A DNA stretch of 64,000 nt from positions 452,023 to 516,022 of the forward strand of contig JBMORU010000001.1 of assembly GCA_049322215.1 (NCBI GenBank), written 5' to 3'. This DNA is from Patescibacteria group bacterium. GTDB lineage: Bacteria > Patescibacteriota > WWE3 > UBA101185 > UBA10185. Of this stretch, positions 26,744-32,112 are shown piece after piece. A program made the position numbers and the translations under genes. The stretch's first letter is position 1. Each line of letters starts with the position of its first letter. The notes below the pieces were generated by a model. That model searched no databases. It saw only the letters and a program-made list of their open reading frames with translations, and was not told where the DNA came from.

Positions 26744-27199
26744 ATGAGTGACATAGTATATCTAACAAAACAAGGATTAGAAGAATTAAAAAAAGAGCTT
26801 AATCAGCTTGTGGATAAAAGACCAGAAGTTGCAAAGCGCATTAAAACAGCTCGCGACATGGGTGATATATCTGAAAATGCTGAATATGTTGCAGCTCGTG
26901 AAGAACAGGCTTTCGTAGAAGGTCGTATTGCTGAACTTGAAGATATTATTAAGAATTCCAAAGTCAGTGAACAAAAGCCCGGTGACGGTATTTACGTGGG
27001 TGCTAAAGTAGTACTTCATATAGAAGGTGACGAAGAAACCTTTCATATAGTGGGTGCTCCTGAAGCAAATCCTTCTGCAAGAAAGATTTCGCACGAATCT
27101 CCTTTAGGTTCTGCTTTGTTAGGTAAAAAAATAGGAGAAAAAGTAGAAGTAGAAGCTCCTGTAGGTAAGCTTGTTTACACAATTTTATCTATAGAGTAA
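26744..27199 (+). CDS. greA: transcription elongation factor GreA
   Basis: LTKQGLEELKKEL...ARDMGDISENAEYVAAREEQAFVEGRIAELE with catalytic D/E in the coiled-coil tip. 151 aa. Confidence 0.9.
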   Translation: MSDIVYLTKQGLEELKKELNQLVDKRPEVAKRIKTARDMGDISENAEYVAAREEQAFVEGRIAELEDIIKNSKVSEQKPGDGIYVGAKVVLHIEGDEETFHIVGAPEANPSARKISHESPLGSALLGKKIGEKVEVEAPVGKLVYTILSIE

Positions 27200-27229
27200 G
27201 ATCGGCTTAGTTAACAACTAAATAATAAA

Positions 27230-27556
27230 GGCTTTGAAAAAGACAAGTAGTTATAAGCAGAAGCTATAAAGGACTAAATGTCCCGAGAGAGCGGCGTTAG
27301 GGTGAAAGTGTCGCATAGAAGAACTAATAATGAAAAGACTTTTAGCTGTTGGAAGAAAAGTGCTTTGCACTTAGTAGACCCAAACGGGGGCGCCCGTAAT
27401 AGCGCTACACTGTGTCGGTGAAAACTGGAGCAGTTAATAAGGTTTGGCTGGCAACAGTCGAATAAATTGAGGTGGTAACACGACCTTTAATAAAGGATCG
27501 TCCTCATTTGGAAGCAATTATTTGTTTTCAGGTGAGGGCGATTTTTTTTGTCTTAA
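27230..27556 (+). ncRNA. candidate T-box riboswitch leader (T-box motif aaattGAGGTGGtAaCaCG at about 27464-27486, then terminator hairpin 27499-27540 with T9)
   Basis: Match to AATTAGGGTGGNACCGCG. An alternative antiterminator can be drawn: UGAGG/CCUCA and ACACGACC/GGAUCGU flanking a UGGUA bulge. The 13-bp terminator (cgtcctcatttgg/tcaggtgagggcg) is followed by attttttttg. AGAGAG and GGTGAAAG elements lie upstream. Confidence 0.45.
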
Positions 27557-27587: not shown

Positions 27588-28172
27588 ATGAATGACTTAA
27601 AGCAAAGCCTTTTAAATAAAAAGGTAGTGTATTCAGGCAGTGAACTAATTTTTATTCACCGCTGGTTAGTAAGTTTAATTTTATCGGCATATACCAGAAG
27701 GGCTAATAACCGGGGAGAGCAAATATTAGTGCAAAATCCATTCAGAATAAACATGCAGCTTAAAAAAGGCTTAAGCGTGCTCATTTTGGTTTATGGGTTT
27801 CCTATTGGTTATTTAACTACTTACGATTTAGGTGTTGATAAGCGCAATAGACGTTGGTGGGAAGTTGGTACTGGCTATGTTCCAAGACCTTTTCGTGGTT
27901 TTGGTTTGGGTCATGTTTTATATGATGGCGCAGCTCAAAGGCATAAAAAAGATGTACTTGTTGGTACTACAAAAAATCCTGTAGCTTTGCATTTAAGTGT
28001 GACTGCTGGGTTTAAAGTAGAATCTTTTGCCAAAGTCCCTGCAGTTATTCGCAAAAGTTTATGTTATGAGGCGCCTTGTTTTGTAGTTAGTAGCGCTTGC
28101 TCCGGGTGTTGCAAATCTGAGCATAACCTGAATGGTACTTGTTATGCTCGTGTGCGTTGGCCGGTAATGTAA
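27588..28172 (+). CDS. GNAT-like acetyltransferase-fold protein (tentative), first gene after the T-box-like leader
   Basis: RPFRGFGLGHVLYDGAAQ resembles the GNAT motif A (R/QxxGxG/A). RBS AAGGAG. 194 aa with a Cys-rich C-terminus. Confidence 0.4.
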   Translation: MNDLKQSLLNKKVVYSGSELIFIHRWLVSLILSAYTRRANNRGEQILVQNPFRINMQLKKGLSVLILVYGFPIGYLTTYDLGVDKRNRRWWEVGTGYVPRPFRGFGLGHVLYDGAAQRHKKDVLVGTTKNPVALHLSVTAGFKVESFAKVPAVIRKSLCYEAPCFVVSSACSGCCKSEHNLNGTCYARVRWPVM

Positions 28173-28236: not shown

Positions 28237-29313
28237 ATGATTAATGAAAAAAGATTACTTAATACATTCTTAAAAATAGTAAGCATTGATAGCCCATCTG
28301 GGTTTGAGCAGGGTATGGTTGCTTATGTAAGTGATTATTTAAATTCATTAAAATACAAGATTCAAATCGATTCTTATGGAAATTTGATTTGCAAAATTCC
28401 AGGAGAAAAAAATTCTACCCTTTTACTTACAGCTCATTTAGATACCGTTGAGCCCGGATGCGGAATAATTCCACTAGTAGAAGACGGCGTTGTAAAAAGT
28501 GTAGGTAATACTATTTTAGGTGCAGATAACAAAGTTGGTGTGGCTTGCTTACTAGAGGTAGCCCATACAATAAGCGAAAACAATATTGAGCATCCCAGCC
28601 TAGAACTTGTTTTTACCTTGTCTGAAGAGGTTGGAAACTACGGTGCCTTAAACCTAAATTACTCTTTACTAACTGCAAAAGAAGGTTTTTCATTTGATGG
28701 TAGTGACACATTTGGTGCTATCACAGTAGCTTCTCCTTTTTATAACAGGTTTGATATTTCTTTAGAAGGTACTGCAAGTCATGCAGGTAAACCCGAGGGA
28801 GCTAATAATGTAATTATGCCATTATTAAATGTCCTTAATTCTATTAACTTAGGTAGGATAACAGACAACACGCTATGTAACATAGGTGTTGTAGCCTTAG
28901 GTACTACTCGAAACACTGTTCCAGGTAAAGTTGAAGTAAAGGGTGAGGTTAGAAGTTATACAGAAGCTGAGTTAAATAAATATACAGATTTAATAGTTGG
29001 CTATTTTCAAAGTAGTGCTCAAAAGTTTAATGCTACTGTTAGTTGTGATGTGGTTAGAGAAAATGGTGGGTTTAAACTTTCGGAATCAGACAGACTACTA
29101 AGTAAAGGAGTTGCAACTCTTGAAAAACTCAACATAAAACCAATATTACATGAGTCTACAGGATGTTATGATGCGAATATATTTTTCGACCATGGAATTA
29201 AAGTATTAAATTTTAGTAACGGTTCAAAAAATAATCACACAATTGAAGAAGAAGTTTCGGTTGAAAACTTAAGCTTAACTGCTAAACTTGCATTCAATCT
29301 TGTGTTATCTTAG
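28237..29313 (+). CDS. M20-family peptidase, peptidase T (tripeptidase)-like
   Basis: LLTAHLDTVEP (His ligand), GADNKVGVA (Asp ligand, PepT-type), EEVGNYGA, TASHAG. Confidence 0.7.
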   Translation: MINEKRLLNTFLKIVSIDSPSGFEQGMVAYVSDYLNSLKYKIQIDSYGNLICKIPGEKNSTLLLTAHLDTVEPGCGIIPLVEDGVVKSVGNTILGADNKVGVACLLEVAHTISENNIEHPSLELVFTLSEEVGNYGALNLNYSLLTAKEGFSFDGSDTFGAITVASPFYNRFDISLEGTASHAGKPEGANNVIMPLLNVLNSINLGRITDNTLCNIGVVALGTTRNTVPGKVEVKGEVRSYTEAELNKYTDLIVGYFQSSAQKFNATVSCDVVRENGGFKLSESDRLLSKGVATLEKLNIKPILHESTGCYDANIFFDHGIKVLNFSNGSKNNHTIEEEVSVENLSLTAKLAFNLVLS

Positions 29314-29321
29314 AAAAAGTT

Positions 29322-31529
29322 ATGGCTACACTTAAAGAATTACGCGAAGTTCGTTTGCAAAAACTAAAAAAATTAAAAGAACTTGGTATTGATCCTTACC
29401 CAGCACGCGTGGAACGCGATACTGAAATTAATACCATACTTACAAAATTTGATTCTTTAGAAGGACAAACAGTTGCAGTTGCAGGTCGTATAAAAGCCAT
29501 GCGTGAACACGGTAAACTAGCTTTTATTGATCTAAAAGATGCTAGTGGCGTAATTCAACTTTATATTAAAGAAGAAAATTTAATAACGGCCAATTATTCA
29601 TTAAGCCAACTTAAGTTTGAAAATTTAGAATTACTTGATATGGGCGACTTTATAGAAGCAAAAGGTGTTGTTACAAAAACTCAAAGAGGTGAGCTTTCTA
29701 TAGAAGTGACTGCTTTGCGTTTATTAACTAAGGCATTACGCCCTTTGGCAGACAAGTGGGAAGGTTTAAAAGACAAAGAAACCAGGTTAAGACGTCGCTA
29801 CATTGATACAAATGTTAATCAAGAGGTTTTTGATCGCTTTGTTAGGCGCGCAAAATTTTGGGAAGCCCAGAGAGAATTTTTAAATGGTCACGGATTTTTG
29901 GAAATTAATGTTCCTGTTTTAGAACACATTCCCGGTGGAGCTGATGCTACACCTTTTGTTACTCATATGGATGCTATTGATCAGGATTTCTTTTTACGAA
30001 TTTCTCATGAGCTTCAATTAAAAAGACTAATTGGTGGAGGTTATGAAAAAGTTTATGAAATAGGTCCTCGTTTTAGAAATGAGGGATTATCGGACGAACA
30101 TTTACCAGAACACATCGCTATGGAGTTTTATTGGGCATATGCCGATTGGGAACAAGGCATGCAATTTGTTGAAGATATGTTTAAGTACGTAATTGATAAG
30201 GTTTACCATAAAGATGTCTTTGAAATTCGAGGTTTCTCCGTAGACTTTTCAAAAAAGTGGGAAAGAATTGATTTTGCTGAAATAATGAAAAAGCACTATG
30301 GAATAAATGTTTACAGTACAAGTGTTGAAGAAGTGTCAGTAGTATTAAAAAAACACAATATAAAAATAGAATTTGATATGAATGTGGCCCGTGGCATTGA
30401 CTATTTGTGGAAAAATTTACGCAAAGATATTGCAGGTCCTGCATTTTTAATTAATCATCCAAAATTTTTATCTCCTTTGTCTAAATCTAAAGTAGAAAAT
30501 CCAAAAATCACCGAAAGATGTCAGCCTATTATTGCAGGATCTGAGTTGGGAAATGGTTGGTCTGAGTTGAATGACCCATTAGATCAGCTAGATAGATTTA
30601 CAGCACAACAAAAGCTACGCGAAATGGGGGATGCTGAGGCGCAATGGCTAGATATCGACTATATTGAAATGCTTGAATATGGCATGCCTCCTACTTTTGG
30701 GTGGGGACATAGCGAACGCGTATTTTGGTTTTTAGAAGATGTAACCGCACGTGAGGGTGTTCCTTTTCCACAATTAAAATTTGAGCTAGATGAAGTTACG
30801 CGTGAAATATATGGTGATGCTCTGCTTGCTGCTTCTCAATACAAAGAAAGCGAGGAAAAAGAGTTTTTAGGTTCAACAGTTGAAAAAAAAGTGACAGCTC
30901 CTAAAGATTTAGAACCAGTTGCCGAAGGAAGTTTACCCCTAACGGTAGACTCCGCTAAAGATTTATTAACCACAAATATGGAAAATGTTAATTTGCAAAG
31001 ACACTGTTTAGCTGTAGGGTATACCTTGCAAGCCCTTAGACGTTACTATGTAGAAAATGGCAGAGAGCATGAAGTAGGGAACTTAACCGAAGACGCTTGG
31101 CAAATAGTTGGTGTTTTACACGATGCAGACTGGGAAAAAACTTCTGAAGCACCTGAGTTACACACATTAATGCTTTTAAACTGGTTAAAAGCTTATGAAG
31201 TTTACGAGGAAATTTTAAATGTATTTAGGTCTCACAATAACAAAGTAACTCAGCTTCGAGAACCTGAAACATTGTTGGAGTGGTCACTAGAATGCTGTGA
31301 TGAGTTAACAGGCTTTATTGCTGCCGTTACATTAGTAAGACCATCAAGGCAAATATCAGACGTTAAAGTAAGTAGTGTTAAAAAGAAGTTTAAAACAAAA
31401 GAGTTTGCACGGGCTGTTCATAGAGAGCAAATTTCACAGTGCGAAGAAAAACTTGGAATTTCTTTAGACACATTTATTGAAATTACTTTAAATGCTATGA
31501 AAGAGCACGCTGAGGAGTTAGGTTTATGA
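29322..31529 (+). CDS. lysS: lysyl-tRNA synthetase (class II) with about 230-aa C-terminal HD-domain-like extension
   Basis: N-terminal MATLKELREVRLQKLKKLKELGIDPYP, OB anticodon-binding domain, class II motifs (FLEINVPVLE, PRFRNEG, GWGHSERVF). The tail from about residue 500 carries H...HDADWEK (HD motif). 735 aa versus about 500 typical. Confidence 0.8.
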   Translation: MATLKELREVRLQKLKKLKELGIDPYPARVERDTEINTILTKFDSLEGQTVAVAGRIKAMREHGKLAFIDLKDASGVIQLYIKEENLITANYSLSQLKFENLELLDMGDFIEAKGVVTKTQRGELSIEVTALRLLTKALRPLADKWEGLKDKETRLRRRYIDTNVNQEVFDRFVRRAKFWEAQREFLNGHGFLEINVPVLEHIPGGADATPFVTHMDAIDQDFFLRISHELQLKRLIGGGYEKVYEIGPRFRNEGLSDEHLPEHIAMEFYWAYADWEQGMQFVEDMFKYVIDKVYHKDVFEIRGFSVDFSKKWERIDFAEIMKKHYGINVYSTSVEEVSVVLKKHNIKIEFDMNVARGIDYLWKNLRKDIAGPAFLINHPKFLSPLSKSKVENPKITERCQPIIAGSELGNGWSELNDPLDQLDRFTAQQKLREMGDAEAQWLDIDYIEMLEYGMPPTFGWGHSERVFWFLEDVTAREGVPFPQLKFELDEVTREIYGDALLAASQYKESEEKEFLGSTVEKKVTAPKDLEPVAEGSLPLTVDSAKDLLTTNMENVNLQRHCLAVGYTLQALRRYYVENGREHEVGNLTEDAWQIVGVLHDADWEKTSEAPELHTLMLLNWLKAYEVYEEILNVFRSHNNKVTQLREPETLLEWSLECCDELTGFIAAVTLVRPSRQISDVKVSSVKKKFKTKEFARAVHREQISQCEEKLGISLDTFIEITLNAMKEHAEELGL

Positions 31530-31629: not shown

Positions 31630-31869
31630 TTAACTAACCAGTGCTGCCAAGCGGTGTTTTACCGTAGAGGCGCGTGATTCTAAATGCCAGTCGCTGCGTA
31701 GACCAATGACTGTGGTGCATTGCGCACGCGTTTGATTGCATCCTTTTTCTGGGCTTACTCGCACCCAACGGCCATTTACAAAAAACTTGCCAGTTTCAGG
31801 GCACTTAATACCGTATTTGCCTCCTCTTTTTACCAAATGAACAATCGTCCTTCCGTTGTTGTTTTCCAC
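31630..31869 (-). CDS. small hypothetical protein (79 aa), Cys-containing, high GC for this genome
   Basis: Reverse-strand RBS aaAAGGAGataaaATG. Protein MENNNGRTIVHLVKRGGKYGIKCPETGKFFVNGRWV... Confidence 0.45.
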   Translation of the reverse strand: MENNNGRTIVHLVKRGGKYGIKCPETGKFFVNGRWVRVSPEKGCNQTRAQCTTVIGLRSDWHLESRASTVKHRLAALVS

Positions 31870-31939: not shown

Positions 31940-32112
31940 GTAACGCTATTTTAGTAGAAAGACAAAAAGCGCTGATAGAGGAAGTTTCCGCCTCTTGAGC
32001 TGCTAGGAGGAAATGCCTAGCCGGGAATGCCCGTGATAGCTGTAAATTAAGTTAAAAGTACCAGGTGGCACCGTCCACCATTAGGACCCTGGCAAATGGC
32101 CAGGTTTTTTTG
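31940..32112 (+). ncRNA. T-box riboswitch leader upstream of serS (T-box aaaagtaccaGGTGGcACCGtcc 32054-32076; terminator cctggc-aaatg-gccagg + T7 at 32088-32111)
   Basis: Good match to the AGGGTGGNACCG core, GC stem followed by ttttttt, and the first downstream gene is an aminoacyl-tRNA synthetase. Putative -35 TTGACA at 31923. Confidence 0.55.

Follow-up and report, generated by a model that had tools for sequence, protein, structure and literature searches.

A class II lysyl-tRNA synthetase fused to a divergent HD-superfamily domain in a WWE3 patescibacterium, and the linkage of this HD family to both classes of lysyl-tRNA synthetase

Lysyl-tRNA synthetase (LysRS) is a classical source of diadenosine tetraphosphate (Ap4A), and YqeK (COG1713), the symmetrical Ap4A hydrolase of Gram-positive bacteria, belongs to the HD family (PMC10148737). 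YqeK is small (~190 residues) and all-helical, and carries a two-metal H...HD...H...H...D site (PMC11857287). An HD fold is also built into an aminoacyl-tRNA synthetase: the HD domain of GlyRS-beta is integrated in the body of the synthetase, helps to bind the tRNA acceptor arm and serves aminoacylation, and its His-Asp pair has been replaced (Ser393/Lys394 in E. coli; PMC8464048). LysX is a bifunctional LysRS in which an MprF-type lysyl-phosphatidylglycerol synthase, with the synthetase at its C terminus, moves lysine from Lys-tRNA to lipid, so that the appended domain handles the LysRS product. The HD domains of class II CCA-adding and HD-Pnk enzymes are phosphoesterases that act on the 3' ends of tRNA or RNA. 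Finally, ApaH and the Nudix Ap4A hydrolases clear dinucleoside polyphosphates made by aminoacyl-tRNA synthetases (PMC10148737). Their folds and catalytic machinery are unrelated to HD domains, and YqeK and ApaH are reported to exclude each other in their distribution. The present work deals with lysS::HD, a fusion gene at 29322..31529 of a stretch of 64,000 nucleotides (the window; contig JBMORU010000001.1 of assembly GCA_049322215.1, positions 452,023 to 516,022, forward strand) from a WWE3 patescibacterium. Its product joins a class II LysRS to a C-terminal module of the HD/HDIG superfamily. The HD family in question is very probably a dedicated LysRS partner in Microgenomates/WWE3-type Patescibacteria, in which it is usually encoded by the gene right after lysS. 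Fusions to LysRS have arisen repeatedly; they involve class II and class I enzymes, both domain orders and, in some cases, intervening modules.

The complete open reading frame (ORF) of lysS::HD lies on the plus strand, as do all features below unless stated otherwise, and is a single, uninterrupted, ATG-initiated frame of 735 codons plus stop, with neither internal stop nor frameshift, in a region of ~36% G+C. An identical protein (P0121) is recorded from an NCBI Patescibacteria metagenome-assembled genome (MAG). Three parts were distinguished: a class II LysRS (residues 1 to ~499), a tether of ~38 residues, and an all-helical C-terminal module of 198 residues. Close unfused LysRS proteins have 488-514 residues, the last of which corresponds to residue ~499 here; the long extension of this 735-residue protein pointed out in the initial annotation was thus confirmed, at ~235 residues.

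Residues 6-486 exceed the cut-offs of two lysine--tRNA ligase models (NF001756, 498.7 vs 468; TIGR00499, 448.8 vs 427.6). The N-terminal OB-fold anticodon-binding domain (residues 51-135, 29472..29726; Pfam tRNA_anti-codon PF01336, E=4.9e-14) is followed by the class II catalytic core (residues 151-484, 29772..30773; Pfam tRNA-synt_2 PF00152, E=2.1e-61). Among 57 fused homologues, conservation is complete at R252-N253-E254-G255 of motif 2 and at G462 and R466 of motif 3, and it reaches at least 90% at G460 of motif 3. The conserved C-terminal tail of the synthetase (residues 485-499, PFPQLKFELDEVTREIY, 30774..30818) coincides with the end point of unfused LysRS proteins; when residues 487-540 were used as query, the first 12 aligned with the final residues of 500-residue unfused LysRS proteins. 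By these sequence criteria nothing sets the LysRS half apart from other class II LysS proteins, and the predicted role of this half, lysylation of tRNA-Lys, is consistent with the Lys-specifier T-box found upstream (see below). The LysX model NF002821 also matches this half, below its cut-off; unlike in LysX, the partner of the synthetase is here a C-terminal, putative HD hydrolase.

The module (residues 538-735, 30933..31526) was predicted by AlphaFold2 (AF2) with high confidence as an all-helical domain (predicted local distance difference test score, pLDDT, 94.4; predicted template modelling score, pTM, 0.91). In the PDB, Foldseek matched it almost exclusively to HD proteins, namely the GlyRS-beta HD domain, YqeK (8wmy, rank 5), the cyanamide hydratase Ddi2, dGTPases, YfbR and HD-GYP proteins; a small alarmone hydrolase is also in the list. 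GlyRS-beta ranks first (7eiv_C, E=0.01, probability 1.0; 7yse_C, a tRNA complex, TMq 0.52). The structure prediction proposed in the initial annotation is suggestive of an HD-type fold, the top matches being weak ones to HD proteins. On the sequence level, about 500 stand-alone proteins of ~197 residues from WWE3 and other Patescibacteria share 52-65% identity with the module; several are named "predicted hydrolase (HD superfamily)" by JGI, and some "HDIG domain-containing protein" or "phosphohydrolase" by NCBI. Pfam HD (PF01966) matches 31 of 38 close homologues, weakly (best E=4.3e-5), and modules of a sister subfamily, taken from other LysRS fusions, exceed the TIGR00277 (HDIG) cut-off with 33.0 and 28.6 bits (cut-off 27.6).

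The module's own sequence gave no Pfam or NCBIfam match at E<=1, PF01966 and TIGR00277 included, so that the PF01966 search proposed in the initial annotation was negative for this protein. Since homologues, motifs and fold all point to HD, the missing direct match is not read as absence of the domain. The matches that direct scans of the extension did produce (Ins_allergen_rp, DUF2750, Octopine_DH) were discarded as noise. Searches of PDB sequences that started from the module alone, from the alignment profile A1 or from a sister-subfamily module yielded nothing meaningful, and a broader profile (A4) found seven weak matches of the YqeK, YpgQ and PgpH types. Four of the seven are YqeK (8jja, the best, E=0.011; 3ccg; 2o08; 2ogi; E range 0.011-0.38), and two are the YpgQ-like proteins 3b57 and 3dto. 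The sister subfamily shows a faint, partial match to PRK07152 (NadD-YqeK; E=0.002-0.026, about 45 residues). By these profile comparisons YqeK appears, marginally, to be the nearest characterised family. Homologues, conserved motifs and predicted fold together assign the module to the HD/HDIG superfamily as a divergent domain; neither YqeK/COG1713 nor the degenerate GlyRS-beta HD type can be shown to include it.

Conservation was counted over 81 modules from species-representative genomes. The putative metal ligands H561, H600, D601, D603, H614, H638 and D660 are invariant in 81/81. They comprise the first ligand histidine, H561 (RHCLAV, 31002..31004), which is also invariant in the alignments A1, A2 and A4; the HD dyad with the adjoining family-specific Asp in H600-D601-A-D603-W-E-K606 (31119..31139); and the remaining putative two-metal ligands H614, H638 (SHN) and D660 (CCDELTGF) within 31161..31301. 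The H...HDADWEK motif on which the initial annotation had relied is indeed encoded, 31002-31139 being translated as HCLAV...GVLHDADWEK. In the family the motif reads HDADWEK or HDxDY, with W or Y at position HD+3 and the invariant Asp at HD+2, and the H, H-D, H, H, D ligands are invariant across both HD subfamilies. The same pattern is formed by the two-metal ligands of YqeK (H29, H58-D59, H91, H117, D135; PMC11857287). The module is very probably an active metal-dependent hydrolase.

A conserved basic motif, K688-K-K-F-K-T-K-E-F695-A696-R-A-V-H-R701 (31383..31424), stands near the C terminus; every module has F695 and R701, 72-78 of the 81 have K688, K689 and K693, and the motif is a candidate phosphate- or RNA-binding element. 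This motif (KKKFKxKxFA..V.R) and the Asp at HD+2 are specific to the module's family and set it apart from YqeK. The gene context differs likewise: the neighbour here is lysS, whereas yqeK usually lies beside nadD. In contrast to GlyRS-beta, the metal ligands are invariant, and the domain sits on a disordered tether or is encoded by a free-standing gene, rather than being integrated in the synthetase body. In one fused LysRS, P0308 (671 residues), the module (~562-666) has no HD motif, "GRASVVAPE" replacing "LHDxDYE", and most of the domain's N-terminal half is gone.

The tether (residues 500-537, 30819..30932) continues the terminal helix of the synthetase to residue ~515 and then becomes a disordered, E/K-rich segment without sequence conservation. 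In the AF2 model of the full-length protein (mean pLDDT 92.0, pTM 0.69) both halves are confidently folded, a helix spans residues 491-515, and pLDDT falls below 50 at 515-537; the pTM value fits two domains on a flexible tether. Among fused homologues the linker differs in length and sequence; in simple fusions the gap between the LysRS match and the HD match is 20-90 residues. The tether segment is not covered by the stand-alone HD homologues.

The lysS::HD fusion is real, not artefactual, and not an isolated case. A lost stop codon or an indel, introduced in sequencing or assembly, might be suspected of having merged two genes: among the closest HD relatives, most are encoded separately, right downstream of lysS, the exact protein is recorded on one contig only, and the index of encoding contigs gave no independent record. 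Against this, the frame stays open across ~38 linker codons at 36% G+C. No ATG, GTG or TTG occurs in lysS::HD at the start position of the stand-alone homologues, where the codons specify GSLPL; the closest in-frame ATG, M553, lies within helix 1 of the module. An orthologous fusion of 728 residues (LysRS 71% and HD 65% identical) is encoded at L007, in a WWE3 MAG (isolate HKST-UBA79) from an unrelated sample, with a linker of similar length and non-conserved sequence. Dozens of further, divergent fused proteins of 690-765 residues are found in public databases. With the continuous frame, the absence of a start codon at the module and the L007 fusion, an artefact is very improbable and was rejected; the objections foreseen in the initial annotation, a missing HD fold or a frameshift, find no support in the fold matches, the frame and L007.

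The HD subfamily was found at no fewer than 521 loci (>=521) in species-representative genomes, with WWE3, Gottesman-, Woese-, Ames- and Blackburnbacteria and Microgenomates among the named carriers. The best 80 loci were classified. The module is fused in frame to class II LysRS at 16 of them; its gene lies directly downstream of class II lysS at 35, has class II lysS 0.5-2.5 kb upstream on the same strand at 13, and lies directly downstream of a class I LysRS gene at 10. Two loci (L017, L074) have no LysRS upstream of the HD gene, and four had too short an upstream sequence for assignment. The HD gene is thus paired with a LysRS gene in 74 of 76 informative loci (about 97%). Junctions between lysS and the HD gene are tight (4-nt overlap at L001, 3-nt gap at L004) or contain one small gene (L002, L003), and the surrounding block greA-lysS-HD-serS-(methyltransferase)-(bacA)-secA is conserved, with greA present at 59/80 and serS at 52/80 loci. 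Many of the locus records (L030, L034, L035, L042-L047 and others) bear the title "uncultured Gammaproteobacteria bacterium" or "Candidatus Saccharibacteria"; by gene content and synteny they fit Microgenomates/WWE3, and the titles were probably assigned wrongly by automatic labelling at the source.

An exhaustive search of representatives was made with a full-length fusion profile (719 positions, LysRS columns included) and covers LysRS contexts. Among its best cluster representatives at 50% identity, 36 of 150 contain the module, and no fewer than 30 such clusters have the fusion seen in lysS::HD. Fused and unfused states are interleaved on neighbour-joining trees of both halves (trees without support values), and at least 10 changes are required by Fitch parsimony on either tree. 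The LysRS half of lysS::HD groups with proteins that carry an HD module of the other subfamily (LysRS 74-76%, HD 31-35% identical), a mismatch in the sequence grouping which suggests that the module has been replaced; in this apparent replacement lysS::HD and L007 stand against P0122 and P0124.

The slot between greA and the HD gene is occupied by a class I LysRS (PF01921, E=1e-81 to 6e-93) at L030, L032, L038, L040, L042, L047, L055, L059, L072 and L084, from Gottesmanbacteria-like and other Microgenomates genomes; at the junction to the HD gene the two frames often overlap by 4 nt. A C-terminal B3_4 domain is present in the majority of the class I enzymes (761-769 residues). The replacement of class II by class I within a conserved block is an apparent in-place, non-orthologous displacement. 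Five proteins (P0403, P0412, P0422, P0452, P0509) are class I LysRS-B3_4-HD fusions (HD-module E=5e-71 to 2e-27), and P0412 occupies the usual syntenic position. At class I loci (L032, 4576-5205; L087, 8034-8654; and similar ones) a gene for a Ham1/RdgB-type non-canonical nucleoside triphosphate pyrophosphatase (PF01725) follows the HD gene and is itself followed by serS and secA.

The reverse order is realised in P0276 (L088, 4001-6148; on two contigs), with the HD module at residues 1-179 and a class II LysRS at 213-712. As the usual gene pair runs from lysS to HD, this order is not producible by read-through. Multi-domain variants comprise LysRS-B3_4-HD, LysRS-tRNA_bind-B3_4-HD, LysRS-DUF2000-HD, LysRS-HAD-HD and LysRS-NUDIX-HD; the module shares one polypeptide with tRNA_bind and B3_4 in P0259 and P0242, with DUF2000 in P0310, with HAD in P0244 and with NUDIX in P0294. 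B3_4 is appended to both LysRS classes. More generally, LysRS in these lineages is a hub to which B3_4, DUF2000, tRNA_bind, HAD_2, NUDIX and LPG_synthase_C are appended, also as LysRS-B3_4-DUF2000 (examples are P0242, P0244, P0247, P0251, P0259, P0294, P0301, P0310 and P0362, further P0211, P0213 and P0239, and L004, 2045-3997). Of these, P0362 is a LysRS-LPG_synthase_C protein, comparable in its parts to LysX.

The fusion of the HD family to two non-homologous LysRS classes argues for coupling to lysyl-tRNA synthesis itself, and a functional coupling of the module to LysRS is highly likely. The initial annotation did not recognise the fusion as a standard architecture; this is correct for model organisms, while in Microgenomates/WWE3-type Patescibacteria the architecture proved to be widespread. 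The fused proteins are annotated in public databases merely as "lysine--tRNA ligase", and literature searches found no paper on the LysRS-HD architecture or on this HD family.

The explanation preferred for lysS::HD is a two-enzyme protein, in which the class II LysRS would be joined by the flexible tether to a two-metal HD hydrolase with an intact predicted active site. The tethered HD domain would hydrolyse a phosphate-containing compound made or held by LysRS. As first-choice substrates, Ap4A-type dinucleoside polyphosphates, formed from lysyl-adenylate and ATP or another nucleotide, would be destroyed at their site of formation. Taken as a whole, this explanation is tentative and somewhat more apt to fail than to hold; the Ap4A-type substrate in particular is a best guess, made by analogy to YqeK, and distinctly uncertain. 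Of what the initial annotation had inferred, the structural fusion of LysRS with an HD-superfamily domain stands, and the turnover of Ap4A or alarmones is still a proposal. The NUDIX domain inserted between LysRS and HD in P0294 may be counted in favour of an Ap4A-type role, one that the module would share with ApaH and the Nudix hydrolases; we know of no report of an ApaH or Nudix Ap4A hydrolase fused to LysRS. Crude motif and hidden Markov model (HMM) scans of the window's 135 ORFs turned up neither an HD paralogue nor any protein with a Nudix box or HIT motif, a result confined to this part of the 1.1-Mb genome.

Several observations weigh against Ap4A-type clearance. The module has no significant sequence or structure match to YqeK or any other characterised HD enzyme: its Foldseek matches are weak (best E=0.01, TM 0.4-0.5), the PDB matches of the A4 profile all have E>=0.011 and span only the H..HD region, and neither the module nor the sister subfamily matches a YqeK-specific NCBIfam model. 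In S. pyogenes YqeK, mutation of Lys62 (HD+3) significantly lowers Ap4A cleavage (PMC11857287); in the module this position, assigned by motif register and not by structural superposition, is W/Y. A purely class II by-product explanation is weakened by the equal linkage and fusion of the HD family to class I LysRS. Class I LysRS is expected to be a poor Ap4A producer; it activates lysine only with tRNA bound (PMC11961388). The co-appended tRNA_bind, B3_4 and DUF2000 modules point towards tRNA, and if NUDIX and HD were both Ap4A-cleaving, their presence in one protein (P0294) would entail some redundancy. The module of P0308 is degenerate and yet has been retained. Adjacency of lysS and the HD gene is in itself weak evidence, because the whole block from greA to secA is syntenic.

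Two other functions were weighed against Ap4A-type hydrolysis. Ranked close behind it is a role on tRNA-Lys, in which the module would repair tRNA ends that carry a phosphate or a 2',3'-cyclic phosphate, cut or trim RNA, or serve mainly in acceptor-arm binding, within a modular LysRS assembly for tRNA handling and quality control together with tRNA_bind, B3_4 and DUF2000. The best structural match of the module, the tRNA-binding HD domain of GlyRS-beta, fits this role, as do the polypeptides shared with tRNA_bind and B3_4 (P0259, P0242) or DUF2000 (P0310) and the basic motif KKKFKxKxFAxxVxR; the two linked LysRS classes have tRNA-Lys and lysine in common, not fold or by-product chemistry, and in the lineage of P0308 a non-catalytic role may suffice. 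The HD domains of CCA-adding and HD-Pnk end-healing enzymes provide a precedent on RNA ends, although no specific similarity of the module to them was detected and they are not known to have an aminoacyl-tRNA synthetase partner. Binding alone would be insufficient, since all metal ligands are kept in 81/81 modules, unlike in GlyRS-beta, to which the structural likeness is moreover weak (TM 0.43-0.52). There is no known reason for a LysRS-specific repair of tRNA ends, and the HAD (P0244) and NUDIX (P0294) partners suggest small-molecule chemistry. Although it is a close rival, a tRNA-Lys-directed role is on balance unlikely.

The module could also be a general housekeeping hydrolase, for example one acting on (d)NTPs or NMPs or on (p)ppGpp, without any LysRS-specific tie; an ancient gene block with tight junctions would then have led to repeated, near-neutral fusion. 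The conservation of the whole block, including greA and serS, the frequent and easily fused 4-nt overlaps, the fusion of further neighbours and domains to LysRS in these lineages, and the two loci with an HD gene and no lysS (L017, L074) agree with this, and so do the weak YpgQ-like matches and the dGTPases, YfbR and small alarmone hydrolase among the Foldseek matches. It is opposed by the 10 or more transitions between fused and unfused states, by the class I fusions and the reverse-order P0276, which are not explicable by read-through of one ancestral junction, by the tether of 20-90 residues, rather than a bare junction, in every simple fusion, and by the invariance of the catalytic residues in fused forms too. 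Moreover, serS and greA are equally syntenic, yet no LysRS fusions with them were seen among the proteins retrieved. A housekeeping function is accordingly regarded as improbable. A further reading, possible and rather doubtful, makes the HD family indispensable to lysyl-tRNA synthesis, as its obligate partner, across much of the Patescibacteria, with independent recruitment to both LysRS classes, and assigns to it a reaction new for domains associated with aminoacyl-tRNA synthetases (for example a metal-dependent editing, repair or decapping step on tRNA-Lys or lysyl-adenylate) within the modular hub that also includes B3_4, DUF2000, tRNA_bind, NUDIX and HAD.

Upstream of lysS::HD, a T-box leader with a Lys (AAG) specifier and a terminator was located at 27225..27543 (RF00230, 71.4 bits, E=1e-15, under the gathering score of 93; specifier loop GAA-AAG-A). 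Its 20-bp terminator hairpin (27496-27543) is followed by a T-run. The leader lies between greA (26744-27199) and a string of three genes: ORF194, encoding 194 residues without Pfam match (27588-28172), a gene for a 358-residue M20/M28-family peptidase-like protein (28237-29313), and lysS::HD. From their spacing, the three genes are inferred to form one operon. ORF194 and the peptidase gene are not part of the relatives' syntenic block, and a lysine-responsive peptidase could have a lysine-supply function. No T-box was found upstream of lysS in five relatives (L001, L002, L004, L005, L007); regulation by a Lys T-box is therefore not family-wide.

Downstream, a reduced T-box-like leader precedes serS (31963-32104; 37.4 bits, E=4.7e-7 in a 301-nt search). 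Its Stem I is drastically shortened (7 nt for 71 model positions), and the leader was missed by the standard 8-kb scan; GGAAGUUUCCGCC contains a possible UCC (Ser) specifier, and the terminator (32088-32104) is followed by a T7 run. Between lysS::HD and serS, a putative GTG-initiated ORF of 79 residues is found on the minus strand (31630-31869), with a terminator-like hairpin at 31619-31580; it shows no similarity to the 87-residue gene at the same position in L005.

lysS::HD is an aminoacyl-tRNA synthetase with an appended, predicted catalytic domain, and the comparative signal is unusually strong. Appended domains of aminoacyl-tRNA synthetases usually reveal functions in editing, regulation or signalling. 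The linkage to LysRS at about 97% of informative loci, together with the fusion to both unrelated LysRS classes, is a signal of the "Rosetta stone" kind, from which a direct functional partnership is predicted. Being small and apparently soluble, the protein lends itself to biochemical work. If the substrate is tRNA-Lys or an adenylate, the module would represent a new kind of quality-control or repair activity associated with aminoacyl-tRNA synthetases; if it is Ap4A or Np4N, an alarmone synthase-hydrolase pair would be combined in one polypeptide, which would explain alarmone control in these tiny genomes.

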